Shown one piece after another: positions 9,458 through 19,673 of a DNA stretch of 25,999 bases. The position numbers and the translations under genes are program-made. Position 1 is the first letter of the stretch, and each line of letters starts with the position of its first letter. The notes under the pieces are model-generated. The model searched no databases, was not told where the DNA came from, and saw only the letters and a program-made list of their open reading frames with translations. The stretch spans positions 1 to 25,999 of the forward strand of contig JBFLWO010000001.1 in assembly GCA_040757755.1 (NCBI GenBank), given 5' to 3'. The stretch comes from Actinomycetota bacterium. Lineage in GTDB: Bacteria > Actinomycetota > Thermoleophilia > Miltoncostaeales > Miltoncostaeaceae.

Positions 9458-9530
9458 TAGCGCATACGGGATTCGAACCCGTGTTACCGCCGTGAGAGGG
9501 CGGCGTCCTAGGCCCCTAGACGAATGCGCC
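9458..9530 (-). tRNA. tRNA-Glu (anticodon CTC)
   Basis: GGCGCAT..ATGCGCT acceptor stem, CCGCC-CT CTC AC-GGCGG anticodon arm, TTCGAAT T-loop. CCA is not encoded. Confidence 0.97.
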
Positions 9531-9572
9531 GTGGTGGGTGATTCAGTTGTGCCTGCCCGCGGGAGCGGGCAG

Positions 9573-9643
9573 CTGGGGGAGGAGGATTCGAACCCCCGCT
9601 ACCGGGGCCAGAACCCGGCGTCCTACCGCTAGACGATCCCCCA
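9573..9643 (-). tRNA. tRNA-Gln (anticodon CTG)
   Basis: TGGGGGA..TCCCCCA acceptor stem with U1-A72, CCGGG-TT CTG GC-CCCGG anticodon arm, TTCGAAT T-loop. CCA is not encoded. Confidence 0.97.
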
Positions 9644-14337: not shown

Positions 14338-14684
14338 TGGCCCGCCGCAAGCCCCGCCGCCGGCCGAACGCCGGCCCCCCGCCCGTGCGCAACGCCCGCG
14401 CCGACGCCAGGCGCCAGGCCGAGCAGCCGGCGCGCACCGGCCGGGCCGCCGCGCCCGCCGACATGCCGCAGCCCCTGTCGCTTCGCGGCGTGCTCATCCG
14501 CGCCCTCGTGGCCGCGGCGATCTTCTTCGTCTACATCCTGATCGTGAGCGACATCGACCCGGCGGGCGCCCTGCCGGTCACCGCCATCGCGTTCGCGCTC
14601 ATGATCCCCGTCGGGTTCCTGATGGACCGGGCCGTCTACCGCATCCGCCTGCGTCGCTGGCGCAGCCGGCGGGGACGGGCGTGA
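14337..14684 (+). CDS. Small two-TM membrane protein with basic N- and C-termini
   Basis: ATG overlaps the ftcD stop (TGATG) and the stop overlaps the hisS start (GTGA). Hydrophobic segments VLIRALVAAAIFFVYILIV and ALPVTAIAFALMIPVGFLM. Confidence 0.8.
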   Translation: MARRKPRRRPNAGPPPVRNARADARRQAEQPARTGRAAAPADMPQPLSLRGVLIRALVAAAIFFVYILIVSDIDPAGALPVTAIAFALMIPVGFLMDRAVYRIRLRRWRSRRGRA

Positions 14685-15940
14685 CGCCCGCGGCCCCCCG
14701 GGGCACCCGCGACGTCCTGCCGGCGGAGGGGCGCCTGCGCCAGCGGGTCGTCGACGTCGCCCGGGAGCGGTTCGCCGCCTACGGCTTCCAGCCGATCACG
14801 ACGCCGACGTTCGAGGAGACGGAGGTGTTCGTCCGCGGCGTGGGCACCAGCACGGACATCGTCCGCAAGGAGATGTACACGTTCACGGACGGCGGCGGCC
14901 GCAGCCTGACCCTGCGCCCCGAGGGCACCGCGCCGGTCGCCCGCGCGTTCGTGGAGCACGGCATGCACAAGCTGCCGCTGCCCGTGAAGCTCTGGTACCT
15001 CGCCCCGATGTTCCGGTACGAGGCGCCCCAGGCGGGCCGCTACCGGGAGCACTGGCAGATCGGGGCGGAGGTCCTGGGCAGCGAGGACCCCCTCGTCGAC
15101 GTCGAGGCGATCGCACTCCTGTCCGACATCTACCGGCGCCTCGGCGTGCCCGGGATCCGCCTGAGGATCGGCAGCATGGACGACCCGGCGGCCCGCGGCG
15201 CGTACCGCGACCTCCTCCTCGCCTACCTGGCCCCGTACGCCGGCGACCTGCCGGAGGACGCGCGGGAGCGGATGGCGGAGAACCCGATGCGGCTGTTCGA
15301 CGCGAAGGACGCCCGCGTGCAGGCGATCATGGCCGGCGCGCCGAAGCTGCTCGACCACCTGTCCCCCCCGGCGCAGGAGCACCGCGAGCGCGTGCTCGCC
15401 GCCCTCGACGCCCTCGGCATCCCCTACGAGGAGGACCCCACGCTGGTGCGCGGCCTCGACTACTACACCCGGACCGTCTTCGAGTTCACCTGCGACCGCC
15501 TCGGCGCCCAGAGCGGCATCGGCGGCGGCGGCCGCTACGACCGGCTGGTGGAGGACCTCGGGGGCCCGCCGACGCCCGGCGTCGGCTTCGGCGCCGGCAT
15601 CGAGCGCATCTGCCTCGCCCTCGAGGCGGACGGCCCGGCCGTCGACGGCGGGGTCGTCGACGTGTACCTCGCGGTGCCCGACGCGGCGCTGCGCGCCGCC
15701 CTCGTCCCGCTCCTCGCCGCGCTGCGCGACCGCGGCCTGCGGGTGGAGAGCGACCTGCGCGGCCGCGGCCTGAAGGCGATGCTGCGCCACGCCGACCACC
15801 TGGGGGCGGCGCACGTCGTGATCGTCGGCCCGCGCGAGATGGAGGCGGGGGAGGCGACGGTGCGCGACATGGCGTCCGGCGCCCAGGAGTCGGTGCCGCT
15901 CGACCGGCTCGCCGACCACCTCACGGGGGTGACGGCGTGA
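14681..15940 (+). CDS. hisS: Histidine--tRNA ligase
   Basis: PRGTRDVLP, RKEMYTFTD, LRPEGTAPVAR, FRYEAPQAGRYREHWQ, LVRGLDYYT, GGGRYD, GFGAGIER. Confidence 0.98.
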   Translation: MTPAAPRGTRDVLPAEGRLRQRVVDVARERFAAYGFQPITTPTFEETEVFVRGVGTSTDIVRKEMYTFTDGGGRSLTLRPEGTAPVARAFVEHGMHKLPLPVKLWYLAPMFRYEAPQAGRYREHWQIGAEVLGSEDPLVDVEAIALLSDIYRRLGVPGIRLRIGSMDDPAARGAYRDLLLAYLAPYAGDLPEDARERMAENPMRLFDAKDARVQAIMAGAPKLLDHLSPPAQEHRERVLAALDALGIPYEEDPTLVRGLDYYTRTVFEFTCDRLGAQSGIGGGGRYDRLVEDLGGPPTPGVGFGAGIERICLALEADGPAVDGGVVDVYLAVPDAALRAALVPLLAALRDRGLRVESDLRGRGLKAMLRHADHLGAAHVVIVGPREMEAGEATVRDMASGAQESVPLDRLADHLTGVTA

Positions 15941-17733
15941 TCGGCGCCGCCCGCTACCGCACGCACTCCTGCCTGGACGCCGCCGACGCGCAGGGGCGCA
16001 CCGTCCGCGTCGCCGGCTGGGTGCACCGCCGCCGCGACCACGGCGGCCTCGTGTTCGTCGACCTGCGCGACCGCAGCGGCGTGCTGCAACTCGTCTTCGA
16101 CCCGGACACCGCCGGGGAGGCGCACCGCGCCGCCCGCCACCTGAGCCCCGAGGACGTGGTCAGCGTCGAGGGGGCGCTCGTCGCCCGCTCCGCCGAGACC
16201 GTCAACCCGAACATCCCGACCGGCGCGGTGGAGCTGCGCGTCGCGTCGCTCGAGCTCCTCTCCGAGGCCGAGCCCCTGCCGTTCTCCGTGGAGGACGAGA
16301 CGCAGGAGGCGTCGGAGGAGCTGCGGATGACGTACCGCTACCTCGAGATGCGGCGCCCCAAGCGCCTGCGCGCCATCGAACTGCGCAGCCGCGTCACGCG
16401 GGCGGTGCGCCACGTCCTCGACGAGGAGGGCTTCCTCGAGGTCGAGACCCCGATGCTGATCCGCTCCACGCCGGAGGGCGCGCGGGACTTCATCGTGCCG
16501 AGCCGGCTGCAGCAGGGCCACTGGTACGCGCTGCCGCAGAGCCCCCAGCTCTTCAAGCAGATCCTCATGGTCGGCGGGGTGGAGCGCTACTACCAGATCG
16601 CCCGCTGCTTCCGGGACGAGGACCTGCGGGCCGACCGCCAGCCGGAGTTCACCCAGGTGGACATCGAGGCGTCGTTCGTCGAGCCGGAGGACCTGTACCG
16701 GCTCACGGAGGCGGTGATCGTCGCCGCCGCCGGGGAGGCGTTCGTCGACCTGCCCGCGCCGTTCCCGCGGATGACGTTCGCCGACGCCACCCGCCGGTTC
16801 GGCACGGACCGCCCGGACCTGCGCTACGGCATGGAGATCCTCGACTGGACGCCGCAGGCGGCGGGAAGCGAGTTCAAGGTGTTCGCGTCCGTCGCCGCGG
16901 AGGGCGGCGTGGTGCGCGGCATCGTGGTTCCCGGTGCCGGCGAGGGCTTCTCCCGCAAGAACGGGGACGACCTCATGGAGGAGGCCCGCGGCCTGGGCGC
17001 GAAGGGGCTCGTGTGGGCCGTCGCGGAGCCCGACGGCACGCTGCGCTCCCCCGTCGCGAAGTTCCTCGGCGGGCTCGTCGAGGCGTGGGGCGTCGCCCCC
17101 GGCGACCTCGTCCTGATGGTCGCCGACGCGGAGTCCGTGGCGCAGCCGGTGCTCGGCACCCTGCGCGTGCGGATGGCGGAGCGGCACGGCCTGGTGCCGG
17201 ACGGCGCGTGGGCGCCCGTGTGGATCACCGACTTCCCGCTGGTGGAGTGGAACCCGGACGAGTCGCGCTGGGACCCCAGCCACCACCCGTTCACGGCGCC
17301 CCGCCCGGAGGACGTGCACCTCCTGTCGCGCGACCCGGGGAAGGTGGTGGCGCTCGCCTACGACGTCGTGCTGAACGGCAACGAGGTCGGCGGCGGCAGC
17401 ATCCGTATCCACGACCGCGACGTGCAGCAGGCCGTGTTCGACATGATCGGGATCGGGCACATGGAGGCGGAGGCGAAGTTCGGCTTCCTGCTGCGGGCCC
17501 TGCGGATGGGGGCGCCGCCGCACGGCGGGATCGCCCTGGGCCTCGACCGCCTCGTGATGCTCCTCGCCGGCGAGCGGTCCATCCGGGACGTGATCCCCTT
17601 CCCCAAGACCGCGACGGGCGGGGACCCCCTCACGGGGGCGCCGTCCGAGGTGGACGCGGCGCAGCTCAAGGAGCTCGGCCTGCGGATCGCGGCCCCCGCG
17701 CCGCCCGCCGCCCGGGCGCAGCCCGCGTCGTAA
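15937..17733 (+). CDS. aspS: Aspartate--tRNA ligase, probably non-discriminating (Asp/Asn)
   Basis: GWVHRRRDHGGLVFVDLRD, STPEGARDF, LPQSPQLFKQ, CFRDEDLRADRQPEFTQ, GAPPHGGIALGLDR. Confidence 0.98.
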   Translation: MIGAARYRTHSCLDAADAQGRTVRVAGWVHRRRDHGGLVFVDLRDRSGVLQLVFDPDTAGEAHRAARHLSPEDVVSVEGALVARSAETVNPNIPTGAVELRVASLELLSEAEPLPFSVEDETQEASEELRMTYRYLEMRRPKRLRAIELRSRVTRAVRHVLDEEGFLEVETPMLIRSTPEGARDFIVPSRLQQGHWYALPQSPQLFKQILMVGGVERYYQIARCFRDEDLRADRQPEFTQVDIEASFVEPEDLYRLTEAVIVAAAGEAFVDLPAPFPRMTFADATRRFGTDRPDLRYGMEILDWTPQAAGSEFKVFASVAAEGGVVRGIVVPGAGEGFSRKNGDDLMEEARGLGAKGLVWAVAEPDGTLRSPVAKFLGGLVEAWGVAPGDLVLMVADAESVAQPVLGTLRVRMAERHGLVPDGAWAPVWITDFPLVEWNPDESRWDPSHHPFTAPRPEDVHLLSRDPGKVVALAYDVVLNGNEVGGGSIRIHDRDVQQAVFDMIGIGHMEAEAKFGFLLRALRMGAPPHGGIALGLDRLVMLLAGERSIRDVIPFPKTATGGDPLTGAPSEVDAAQLKELGLRIAAPAPPAARAQPAS

Positions 17734-17804: not shown

Positions 17805-17828
17805 CAGCACTCGAGACGGGAGGTGTCC

Positions 17829-18569
17829 ATGAGACCGCGTCGCACGATCCTCGCGGGAGCCGCCGCCGCCGGCGCCGCGGCGCTCGCCCTGGTGGCGGGC
17901 GCCGCCGCGTCGGGCGGGGAGCACCCCCGCACCTACCGGGTCACGATCGAGAACCTGACCGGCGGCCAGCCGCTCACCCCGCCGATCCTCGCCGTCCACG
18001 CCGGCCGCCACCTGATGTTCGAGGTGGGGGAGCCGGCGTCGCGCGAGATCCGGGAGATCGCCGAGAACGGCGACCTGGGCCCGATGGCCGCGTTCCTCGG
18101 CGCGTCGCCGCGCGTGGCGGGAACGGCGCAGGGGACCGCGCCGCTCGTGCCGGCCGCGAACCCCGGGAACACGCCGTTCACCTCGTCCGTCGCCCTGGAC
18201 GTCACCGCGGGCCCCGGCGCGCGGCGCCTGTCGTGGGCGTCGATGCTCGTCTGCACCAACGACGGGTTCACCGGCGTGGACGGTCTGCGGCTGCCGCGCG
18301 CGGTGGGGCAGTCCGTGGTCGTCACCACCAACGGCTACGATGCGGGAACCGAGGCGAACACGGAGGACTTCGGTGACATCGTGCCGCCGTGCCAGGGCCT
18401 GATCGGGCAGGCGGGCAGCGAGCCGGGCACCGGCGTGAGCGACCCGGACCTCGAGACGAACGGGGTGATCCGCCACCACCGCGGCATCCGGGGGCGCGAG
18501 GACCTGACGCCCGCCCTGCACGGCTGGACGGACCCCGTCGCCCGGGTCACCGTCACGCGCACCGGGTGA
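17829..18569 (+). CDS. Secreted spondin-N (F-spondin-like) domain protein
   Basis: RBS GGGAGG. Signal peptide MRPRRTILAGAAAAGAAALALVAGAAA, then YRVTIENLT...PLTPPILAVH...IAENGD...SMLVCTNDGF...YDAGTEANTE. Confidence 0.8.
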   Translation: MRPRRTILAGAAAAGAAALALVAGAAASGGEHPRTYRVTIENLTGGQPLTPPILAVHAGRHLMFEVGEPASREIREIAENGDLGPMAAFLGASPRVAGTAQGTAPLVPAANPGNTPFTSSVALDVTAGPGARRLSWASMLVCTNDGFTGVDGLRLPRAVGQSVVVTTNGYDAGTEANTEDFGDIVPPCQGLIGQAGSEPGTGVSDPDLETNGVIRHHRGIRGREDLTPALHGWTDPVARVTVTRTG

Positions 18570-18614: not shown

Positions 18615-18899
18615 CTACTCCGGGAGGGGGACGGGGACGGTCCGCTCCATCACCATCATGGGGCCGAGCGTGGAGTCAAGCTCGAGCACCTCGTGGGTGA
18701 GGGACTGCCACGCGGCCGTCACGATCACCCCGCCGACACGTCCGGACAGCGATGCGAGCGTCGACTGCAGGAGGGCGTCCTGGCCGGGGGTGAGCCCCTC
18801 GATGTCGGGCGCGAGGGTGACGGCGGGGAGGGGCGGCGGCACGAGCATGCCCCAAGGATCAGCGGCCGGCGCGCCCGTGGGAACGGGGAATGGAGACAT
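18615..18899 (-). CDS. Small hypothetical protein (77-94 aa)
   Basis: Codons after the second Met (ATG 18848) are strongly G/C-ending and the ORF fills an otherwise empty gap. No SD sequence and no recognised family. Confidence 0.5.
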   Translation of the reverse strand: MSPFPVPTGAPAADPWGMLVPPPLPAVTLAPDIEGLTPGQDALLQSTLASLSGRVGGVIVTAAWQSLTHEVLELDSTLGPMMVMERTVPVPLPE

Positions 18900-18947
18900 T
18901 GCCCATGCCGGGAGCCGGGACGGACGTGCTCAAGGGCCGCCACCGCG

Positions 18948-18976
18948 TTGCCGACACAGTAGGCACCGAGTAGTCT
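18948..18976 (+). promoter_or_regulatory. Sigma70-type promoter of the 6S-like RNA
   Basis: TTGCCG (18948-18953), 17-nt spacer, TAGTCT (18971-18976). The predicted start at about 18982-18983 coincides with the 5' end of the long stem. Confidence 0.75.
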
Positions 18977-18980
18977 CGCA

Positions 18981-19132
18981 GGTGCCCTGCCTTGTTCGCG
19001 CTTCGGCTCACACGTGAGCCAACACATGTGATCAGGGGAGCGGTGTCAGGATCCCGGTTCGCCCCGATCCGCCCGCACCCCACCTGCGTGAGCAGGCCCA
19101 CGATCACAGCCGACACGGCAAGGCGGGGCACC
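18981..19132 (+). ncRNA. ssrS: 6S RNA-like long hairpin RNA
   Basis: 14-bp closing stem GGTGCCCTGCCTTG(18981-18994) / CAAGGCGGGGCACC(19119-19132) with one U-G pair, an asymmetric central bubble, and inner stem TGTGATC(19028-19034) / GATCACA(19102-19108). GGGAGC and CCCACCTG..GAGC segments resemble Bacillota 6S as I recall it. Located downstream of hisS-aspS. Confidence 0.75.
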
Positions 19133-19157
19133 GCTTCCTCCCGGAGGTGGTCTCGCA

Positions 19158-19673
19158 ATGGTGCCCCGTCTCGCCGCCGCAGGCGCCTGTGCCCTGGCGC
19201 TCGGCGTCCTCGCCGGGTGTGGTGGGGATGGGTCCGGCTCCTCCGCGACCCCGGACGCCGGCGCGGCGGTCGCCGCGGCCGCGCCCGCGCCCCAGGTGTC
19301 CCGGCCGACCGCGCCGGGAGAGCCGGTGCGTCCCGGCCCCGGCACGCCCCGCCCGTTCGCCGCCGCCGTGCAGAAGGGCAAGGCGGTGGTCGTCGCGTTC
19401 CTGATGCCGGGCGTCGCCGACGACGAGGCGGTGCGCAAGGCGCTGCGCGTCGCCCGCGTCGCGAAGGGCGCGCGCGGCGTCGCGTTCTTCACCTACGACC
19501 TGCCTCAGGCGCGGCGGTTCGGCGACCTGCCCGAGCTCCTCGACGTCACCGGCACGCCGACCGTCGTGGTGATCGGCCGTGACCGGCGCGTCGCCAACGT
19601 CTTCCGCGGCCTGACGGACGCGGACATCGTGCGGCAGGCGGTCAGCGACGCGAAGGACGCGCCCCCGGCCTGA
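19158..19673 (+). CDS. Lipoprotein with a thioredoxin-like fold lacking CxxC
   Basis: RBS GGAGG and lipobox LAGC. Domain GKAVVVAFLMPGVADDEAVRKAL...VAFFTYD...LDVTGTPTVVVIGRDRRVANVFRG follows the Trx beta/alpha order with the cis-Pro motif. Confidence 0.7.
   Translation: MVPRLAAAGACALALGVLAGCGGDGSGSSATPDAGAAVAAAAPAPQVSRPTAPGEPVRPGPGTPRPFAAAVQKGKAVVVAFLMPGVADDEAVRKALRVARVAKGARGVAFFTYDLPQARRFGDLPELLDVTGTPTVVVIGRDRRVANVFRGLTDADIVRQAVSDAKDAPPA

Follow-up and report, generated by a model that had tools for sequence, protein, structure and literature searches.

Gene neighbourhood of the locus

The window, which is the whole 25,999-nt stretch of DNA that was analysed, comes from a member of the Actinomycetota, the phylum given by the protein atlas and also the one in which the original prediction had placed the host. 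A scan of genome contigs with the AspS of the window gave mainly Bacillota at about 50% identity, together with a single MAG of doubtful label at 68%. The genes surrounding the locus are arranged in the order hisS, aspS, a spondin-domain protein, a small divergent ORF, a 6S RNA gene, a 171-aa ORF and a NifU-MnmA fusion. The hisS (14681-15940) and aspS (15937-17733) genes were both identified with Pfam upstream of the 6S gene, and the spondin-domain protein (17823-18569, + strand; NF038123, E 1e-44) lies between aspS and 6S. The hisS-aspS neighbourhood had been cited in the original prediction for Bacillus subtilis 6S-1, and the window gene is indeed located downstream of this pair, about 1.25 kb past aspS with two ORFs in between. 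The distance from aspS to 6S is much shorter in most other genomes than in the window, which carries the spondin-domain insertion. The order aspS, 6S, (171-aa ORF) and nifU-mnmA is kept through the class.

The small ORF divergent from 6S (18615-18899, - strand) encodes 94 aa without any Pfam or NCBIfam match and has counterparts of 33-50% identity adjoining 6S in about ten genomes of the same family. The 171-aa ORF on the other side (19158-19673, + strand) shows a lipoprotein-like N-terminus (LAGC) and likewise has no match in Pfam or NCBIfam. Two tRNA genes are found further away in the window at 9458-9643 (- strand; Rfam tRNA, 58-60 bits).

Identification of the 6S RNA gene

6S RNA mimics an open promoter and in this way holds back RNA polymerase. 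The flagged stretch is, with high confidence, a canonical 6S RNA gene (ssrS / bsrA-type) and the counterpart of B. subtilis 6S-1 (bsrA). The gene extends over 18981-19133 (+ strand), would give an RNA of about 150-153 nt and is supported by a covariance model match, the fold z-score and covariation; its family membership, fold, promoter conservation, synteny and collapse-helix covariation are all in silico results. The Rfam 6S covariance model RF00013 matches 18981-19133 (+ strand) with 49.4 bits (E 3e-7) over model positions 1-187 of 187, which is above the gathering score of 46.4 bits. The window copy thus scores just 3 bits over the cut-off, whereas relatives reach 82 bits, and its low score is due to the short apical stem, where 9 nt stand in for 35 apical positions of the model. 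No other RF00013 match was obtained in the genome, a 2.74-Mb MAG of 582 contigs that is 91% complete and in which the gene is single-copy.

The original prediction had proposed a hidden but canonical-type 6S RNA and had suggested a search with RF00013 and a survey of covariation among relatives as ways to check it. The full-length match above the cut-off and the strong covariation described below bear out the canonical type. The gene is not hidden, as the standard Rfam model finds the window copy above threshold and detects 6S in 57 of the 151 genomes sampled across the phylum. The predicted rod of about 152 nt is also found at its place as a rod of about 153 nt, with a minimum free energy (MFE) of -85.0 kcal/mol for 18981-19133, compared with -59.7 +/- 4.1 kcal/mol for dinucleotide shuffles (z = -6.2), none of the 200 shuffles being as good. 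Two overlapping ORFs cover the region (18859-19158 on the minus strand and 18992-19582 on the plus strand); the reading of the region as protein-coding was rejected because its conservation takes the form of base-pair covariation.

Conserved fold and covariation

RF00013 matches were obtained in 33 of 41 genomes of the window's family and class, 30 of them over the cut-off and all of them 153-159 nt in length, with scores of 46-82 bits among the same-class relatives. An alignment of 30 sequences of the class, window included, yields an RNAalifold consensus with the classic 6S layout, and the covariation that the original prediction had proposed to look for among relatives is present, with compensatory changes in 26 of 40 pairs. 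Across the 30 sequences standard pairs make up 90.7% of the cells, a share that falls to 35-44% once the 3' partners have been slid by 1-3 columns, and the covariation score of 0.432 compares with at most 0.146 for the slid partners. None of 500 shuffles matches any of the observed covariation measures. The rod fold, comprising a closing stem, a central bubble and an apical stem, is kept by compensatory changes.

The closing stem (helix 1) is formed by a 5' strand at 18981-18998 and a 3' strand at 19116-19132 (both + strand). It contains 13 consensus pairs, of which six have changed on both sides, and 98.7% of its cells are paired. The original prediction had given this stem 14 bp; while its rod stands, the stem in the window is about 17-18 bp long with one bulge. 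The inner helix joins UCGGCU (19003-19008, + strand) to AGCCGA (19108-19113) through six Watson-Crick pairs in the window, and in the equivalent CCGG(C)/(G)CCGG helix of the relatives (helix 2) four of four pairs have changed on both sides.

Further inwards, helix P2 (helix 3) consists of the 5' strand CGUGAGCC (19013-19020, + strand) paired with GGCCCACG (19095-19102), and within it UGAGCC (19015-19020) pairs with GGCCCA (19095-19100), with one A.C mismatch. Three of the four P2 pairs have changed on both sides, the CGUG/CACG flank of the window being the compensated form of the CUUG/CAAG of its relatives, and UGAGCC aligns to paired positions of the Rfam 6S consensus. The rod is closed by an apical (internal) stem-loop at 19035-19081 (+ strand), which is about 30 nt shorter than in a typical 6S RNA and in which (helices 4 and 5) 12 of 14 pairs have changed on both sides.

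Central bubble and collapse helix

The 5' strand of the central bubble, AACACAUGUGAUCA (19021-19034, + strand), contains the predicted start of a product RNA (pRNA) near C19023, a position assigned by analogy with 6S-1. The motif GAGCCAACAC is nearly invariant among the 30 sequences of the class and identical in the 6S RNA of Tepidibacillus. On the opposite strand the element CCCACCUG...CAGG is invariant or nearly so in the same 30 sequences and is common to Bacillota 6S RNAs. Judged by sequence, the RNA carries both the conserved 5' bubble sequence and the conserved 3' bubble element that are characteristic of 6S RNA.

The 3' strand of the bubble also harbours the hairpin CCUGC-GUGA-GCAGG (19083-19096, + strand; helix 6), in which 100% of the cells are paired; 25 sequences have C-G as its innermost pair and four have U-A. 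The same hairpin is present in Bacillota 6S RNAs, and a small pre-formed hairpin in the 3' bubble strand has been described for B. subtilis 6S-1 (PMC8876501).

A second, competing helix may be formed by UGUGAUC in the distal 5' bubble strand (19027-19033, + strand) and GAUCACA just 3' of P2 (19102-19108, + strand). This duplex amounts to -10.0 kcal/mol in the window and is part of its MFE structure. Among the 30 sequences cognate segments pair with a mean of -3.69 kcal/mol compared with -2.35 kcal/mol for non-cognate combinations, and the cognate mean was reached by one of 5000 permutations. At least four distinct complementary pairs occur (GUGAY/RUCAC, GAGCG(A)/(U)CGCUC, UGGCC/GGCC and GAAUC/GAUUC), and about half of the relatives show the pairing weakly or not at all. 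In B. subtilis 6S-1 and Aquifex 6S, invasion of P2 by the product RNA has been described to let the 3' strand of the P2 region pair with the distal 5' bubble strand, and the resulting 'central bubble collapse helix' supports release from polymerase (PMC8876501). The covarying second helix of the window matches this element, and the RNA thus appears to combine the pre-formed 3' bubble hairpin and the collapse helix that typify the 6S-1 subtype.

Promoter

A -35 element, TTGCCG (18948-18953, + strand), and a -10 element of the TANNNT type, TAGTCT (18971-18976, + strand), were read from the sequence with a 17-nt spacer between them. A simple sigma-70 consensus scan did not flag the window promoter because it requires a TATAAT-like -10. 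The promoter had been part of the original prediction and not only lies where it was placed but is conserved in relatives. A TANNNT -10 ends 3-7 nt before the first position of the 6S model in 30 of 30 genes, and a -35 of the form TTGNNN or nTGCCG, often TTGCCGA(C/A), is located 16-18 nt from the -10 in 25 of 30, with an extended -10 TG added in several other families. The implied start site would be at about 18982-18984. These observations support, at the in silico level, an independent gene with a putative promoter of its own, as is usual for 6S RNA.

The -10 was also claimed to lie in a DNA dyad. The dyad exists (GGCACC at 18962-67 and GGTGCC at 18981-86, with GAG/CTC flanking TAGT), but it is not conserved, since a complementary match of at least 6 nt between the first 10 nt of the RNA and the 35 nt upstream is found in only four of 30 genes and differs among these in position and sequence. 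The dyad is consistent with chance and is treated as such, and its interpretation as an operator was rejected on account of its lack of conservation. Separately, a TCAAG motif is located at 18930-18934 of the window, 12-13 nt upstream of the -35, with equivalents at loci L013, L018, L022, L027 and L028, and it recurs in many family relatives and in one other family. Candidate roles for TCAAG are those of an upstream promoter element and of a regulator site; alternatively, it may belong to the promoter of the divergent small ORF, as its -35 (TTGAGC on the minus strand).

The 3' end and the downstream gene

A simple scan of the window found no terminator-like site for 6S. The RBS (GGAGG) and ATG of the downstream 171-aa ORF (19143-19160, + strand) follow closely, the RBS starting 10 nt and the ATG lying 25 nt past the 3' end of 6S, and read-through with processing, as with E. 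coli ssrS, is therefore plausible. In many relatives the next ORF starts 10-35 nt past 6S, and about eight of the 30 have a U-tract directly after the closing stem.

The 171-aa ORF is retained immediately after 6S throughout the class, and one genome from a different class (G065) has it there too. The start region of the ORF in the window, GGTGCCCC (19160-19167), is perfectly complementary to GGGGCACC (19125-19132) in the 3' strand of the closing stem, so that GGTGCCCC and the closing stem could compete in a read-through transcript; no equivalent complementarity was apparent in those downstream sequences of relatives that were inspected. The hexamers GGCACC / GGTGCC occur four times in alternating orientation around the gene, at 18962-18967, 18981-18986, 19127-19132 and 19160-19165.

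Comparison with characterised 6S RNAs and proposed mechanism

The closest likeness is to B. subtilis 6S-1 and the 6S-1-type RNAs of the Bacillota. These occupy the same position downstream of hisS-aspS, though in the window two ORFs separate aspS from the RNA, which is therefore not directly adjacent, and a further ORF starts 25 nt downstream. They share with the window RNA the 5' bubble and P2 motif UGAGCCAAC (identical in Tepidibacillus), the motifs UGAGCCAACAC, CACCCACCUGC-GUGA-GCAGG and ACGGCA, the pre-formed CCUGC-NNNN-GCAGG in the 3' bubble strand, the capacity of the distal 5' bubble strand to form a collapse helix with the segment 3' of P2, and a promoter of their own. The window RNA differs in its length of about 153 nt as compared with about 190 nt, in an apical stem that is about 30-35 nt shorter, in its high GC content, in the absence of a U-rich terminator and in its ability to form an additional 6-bp hairpin from the P2 5' strand. 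Because the collapse helix, the 3' hairpin and the Bacillota sequence blocks are shared, the window RNA looks like a compact 6S-1.

E. coli 6S (SsrS) belongs to the same Rfam family and shares the rod shape, the central bubble and the UGAGCC element, as well as a possible co-transcription with a downstream gene. Its release mechanism is distinct, as it depends on an extended 9-bp hairpin that the 3' bubble strand forms only after product RNA synthesis (PMC8876501), whereas the small pre-formed 3' hairpin and the available collapse helix of the window RNA are of the Bacillus type. The synteny of E. coli 6S differs too, 6S being linked to ygfA in proteobacteria (Wehner et al. as cited in PMC9130861).

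By homology with the 6S RNAs studied so far, the following mechanism may be proposed. A housekeeping-type promoter of its own (TTGCCG, 17-nt spacer, TAGTCT) would drive transcription of an RNA of about 150 nt from about 18982-18984, and this RNA would fold into the closing stem, the inner helix, P2, a central bubble with its 3'-strand hairpin and a shortened apical stem. As in the characterised systems, the bubble would mimic an open promoter and the 6S RNA would occupy the active site of the primary-sigma (sigma-A) holoenzyme. When nucleotides are plentiful, as during outgrowth, the polymerase would by analogy use the 5' strands of the bubble and of P2 as the template for a short product RNA that is predicted to begin opposite C19023, to be copied leftwards and to read GUUGGCUCACGUG.... 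Product RNA synthesis would then disrupt P2, and the freed segment 19102-19108 would pair with 19027-19033 to form the collapse helix, leading to the release of the 6S RNA. We infer expression, holoenzyme binding, product RNA synthesis and the exact RNA ends; the template motif and the collapse-helix covariation speak for holoenzyme binding and product RNA templating.

The 5' hairpin and alternative readings of the locus

The original prediction had drawn attention to a perfect hairpin, GGCTCA-CACG-TGAGCC, on the 5' side of the bubble and had regarded it as a variant bubble of the lineage. The hairpin (GGCUCA-CACG-UGAGCC in the RNA, here H5) can be read at 19005-19020 (+ strand), but its 3' arm does not lie in the bubble, since UGAGCC is the 5' strand of P2 with support from covariation, and its GGCU (19005-19008) is part of the inner helix UCGGCU/AGCCGA in the canonical fold. 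H5 is thus an alternative pairing that competes with both the inner helix and P2. It is part of the window's MFE structure and dominates its ensemble with a probability of 0.87, and the fold that combines H5 with the collapse helix is calculated at -85.0 kcal/mol compared with -82.1 kcal/mol for a canonical-constrained open-bubble fold, so that the thermodynamic prediction for the window sequence favours the alternative over the canonical fold. Elsewhere the picture is different, as the H5 probability is at most 0.17 in 27 of 29 relatives, in which P2 is more probable, and is 0.60 and 0.52 in the other two. At least five contiguous H5 pairs are possible in nine of the 30 aligned sequences (the window and eight relatives), all of which belong to the window's family, and any of the four bases can stand at position 4 of the 5' arm within the family, with no compensating change. 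A class-wide 'variant bubble' was rejected on these grounds, H5 being dominant in the window and partly so in two of the 29 relatives.

It may nevertheless be asked whether H5 has a role in the window's own branch. The H5 5' arm GGCUCA (19005-19010) is identical in sequence to nt 4-9 of the predicted product RNA, and in 6S-1 the annealing of a 6-nt LNA that mimics the product RNA suffices to block polymerase binding (PMC8876501). A 6S homologue could hence be envisaged in which H5 is a functional built-in switch, the product-RNA mimic and the collapse helix together holding free 6S in a 'released', inactive fold until it is opened. The prevalence of the alternative fold in the window and the capacity of nine of the 30 sequences for a stem of at least 5 bp are in its favour. 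Against it stand the poor conservation of H5, with free variation at position 4 of its 5' arm, the preference of the ensemble for canonical P2 in 27 of 29 relatives, the covarying pairing of the 5' arm's GGC with the 3' GCC of the inner helix, which already accounts for that GGC, and an energy gap of 2.9 kcal/mol that is within the error of the nearest-neighbour model. Such a switch is decidedly improbable. The related proposal that the 6S RNA of this sub-lineage acquired an intramolecular mimic of its own product RNA, which with the collapse helix keeps the free RNA in the 'released' conformation, is improbable as well; if true, the 6S would inhibit itself and would open only in response to a trigger or to polymerase itself.

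Two further readings would deny the locus a 6S function altogether. In one of these the RNA would be a chance GC-rich rod or a core-polymerase binder of the Ms1 type. High-GC DNA folds readily, and across much of the class Actinomycetes the RNA described in association with RNA polymerase is Ms1 (PMC9130861). The statement in the original prediction that mycobacteria and streptomycetes use Ms1 agrees with the literature (PMC9130861, PMC11077062). Ms1 (MTS2823, scr3559) associates with core polymerase that lacks the primary sigma factor, and its neighbouring genes are different (PMC9130861, PMC11077062); Rfam detects it only near mycobacteria (PMC9130861). A chance rod is refuted by the covariation, the controls of which are clean, and is also hard to reconcile with the z-score of -6.2 and with a conserved promoter and synteny. 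Ms1-type RNAs are much longer, the S. coelicolor homologue scr3559 being about 230 nt (PMC9130861), and the window RNA, judged on its length of about 153 nt, its sequence-level match to the 6S model and its hisS-aspS neighbourhood, is not one of them; it bears the bubble motifs common to Bacillota 6S. Both chance and an Ms1 identity are exceedingly unlikely.

The other reading takes the RNA to act in cis on the downstream operon (the 171-aa lipoprotein-like ORF and nifU-mnmA), as its 5' leader or as a processing element, and not in trans as a 6S RNA. The position of the next ORF's RBS and start codon 10-25 nt past the 3' end of the RNA, the lack of a detected terminator and the linkage of the RNA to nifU-mnmA through the class are compatible with this. 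However, the 6S model is matched in full length, the same RNA follows aspS in Bacillota and in further families of the Actinomycetota, where the genes downstream are different, and the 171-aa ORF is absent in several relatives, some of which have a U-tract right after the closing stem. Moreover, E. coli ssrS is co-transcribed with its downstream gene without being its leader. A leader is thus very improbable, and the locus is best read as a 6S RNA gene.

Distribution and synteny in the Actinomycetota

6S RNA has been said not to be found in actinobacteria (PMC9130861; PMC11077062). In the phylum-wide survey 45 of the 57 matches among the 151 sampled Actinomycetota genomes exceed the RF00013 cut-off, and the families are sharply split, with some having 6S in none of 10 genomes and others in nine of nine. 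Applied to the whole phylum, the statement is thus incorrect. The organisms studied in those papers (Mycobacterium, Streptomyces, Corynebacterium and the listed orders) are ones that we take to belong without exception to the class Actinomycetes. Barrick et al. in 2005 and Wehner et al. in 2014 are said to have listed 6S in some actinobacteria outside the Actinomycetes.

Synteny was compared for 16 RF00013 loci from at least 11 other Actinomycetota families. The hisS-aspS pair lies directly upstream on the same strand at 13 of the 16, two more are rearranged and one is cut by a contig end. RF00013 also matches within about 100 nt of aspS in the Bacillota Sutcliffiella, Tepidibacillus and Staphylococcus aureus. 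The location downstream of hisS-aspS, a trait of the 6S-1 subtype, is thus shared by the window gene and recurs both in the Bacillota and in the phylum. This distribution agrees with a history in which a 6S-1-type gene was passed on vertically and was lost or replaced (Ms1, CoRP) only in some lineages of the phylum.

The RNA family, its fold, its synteny and its rearrangement elements have all been described already and a standard model finds the gene, which therefore represents known biology. The practical value is small and consists of a correct ssrS annotation in an uncultured actinomycetotal genome, and the modest addition made here is a clarified distribution of 6S and not a new mechanism.

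A few genomes depart from the general pattern. G028 and G038, two 100% complete genomes of one genus (family f5) in the window's class, have no RF00013 match while all other families of the class do, which could be due to a loss of 6S or to its strong divergence. At locus L118 (G055) the 6S match is reported on the strand opposite to hisS-aspS. At locus L121 (G065) aspS is inverted relative to hisS beside 6S, and the 171-aa ORF and nifU-mnmA follow as they do in the window's class.
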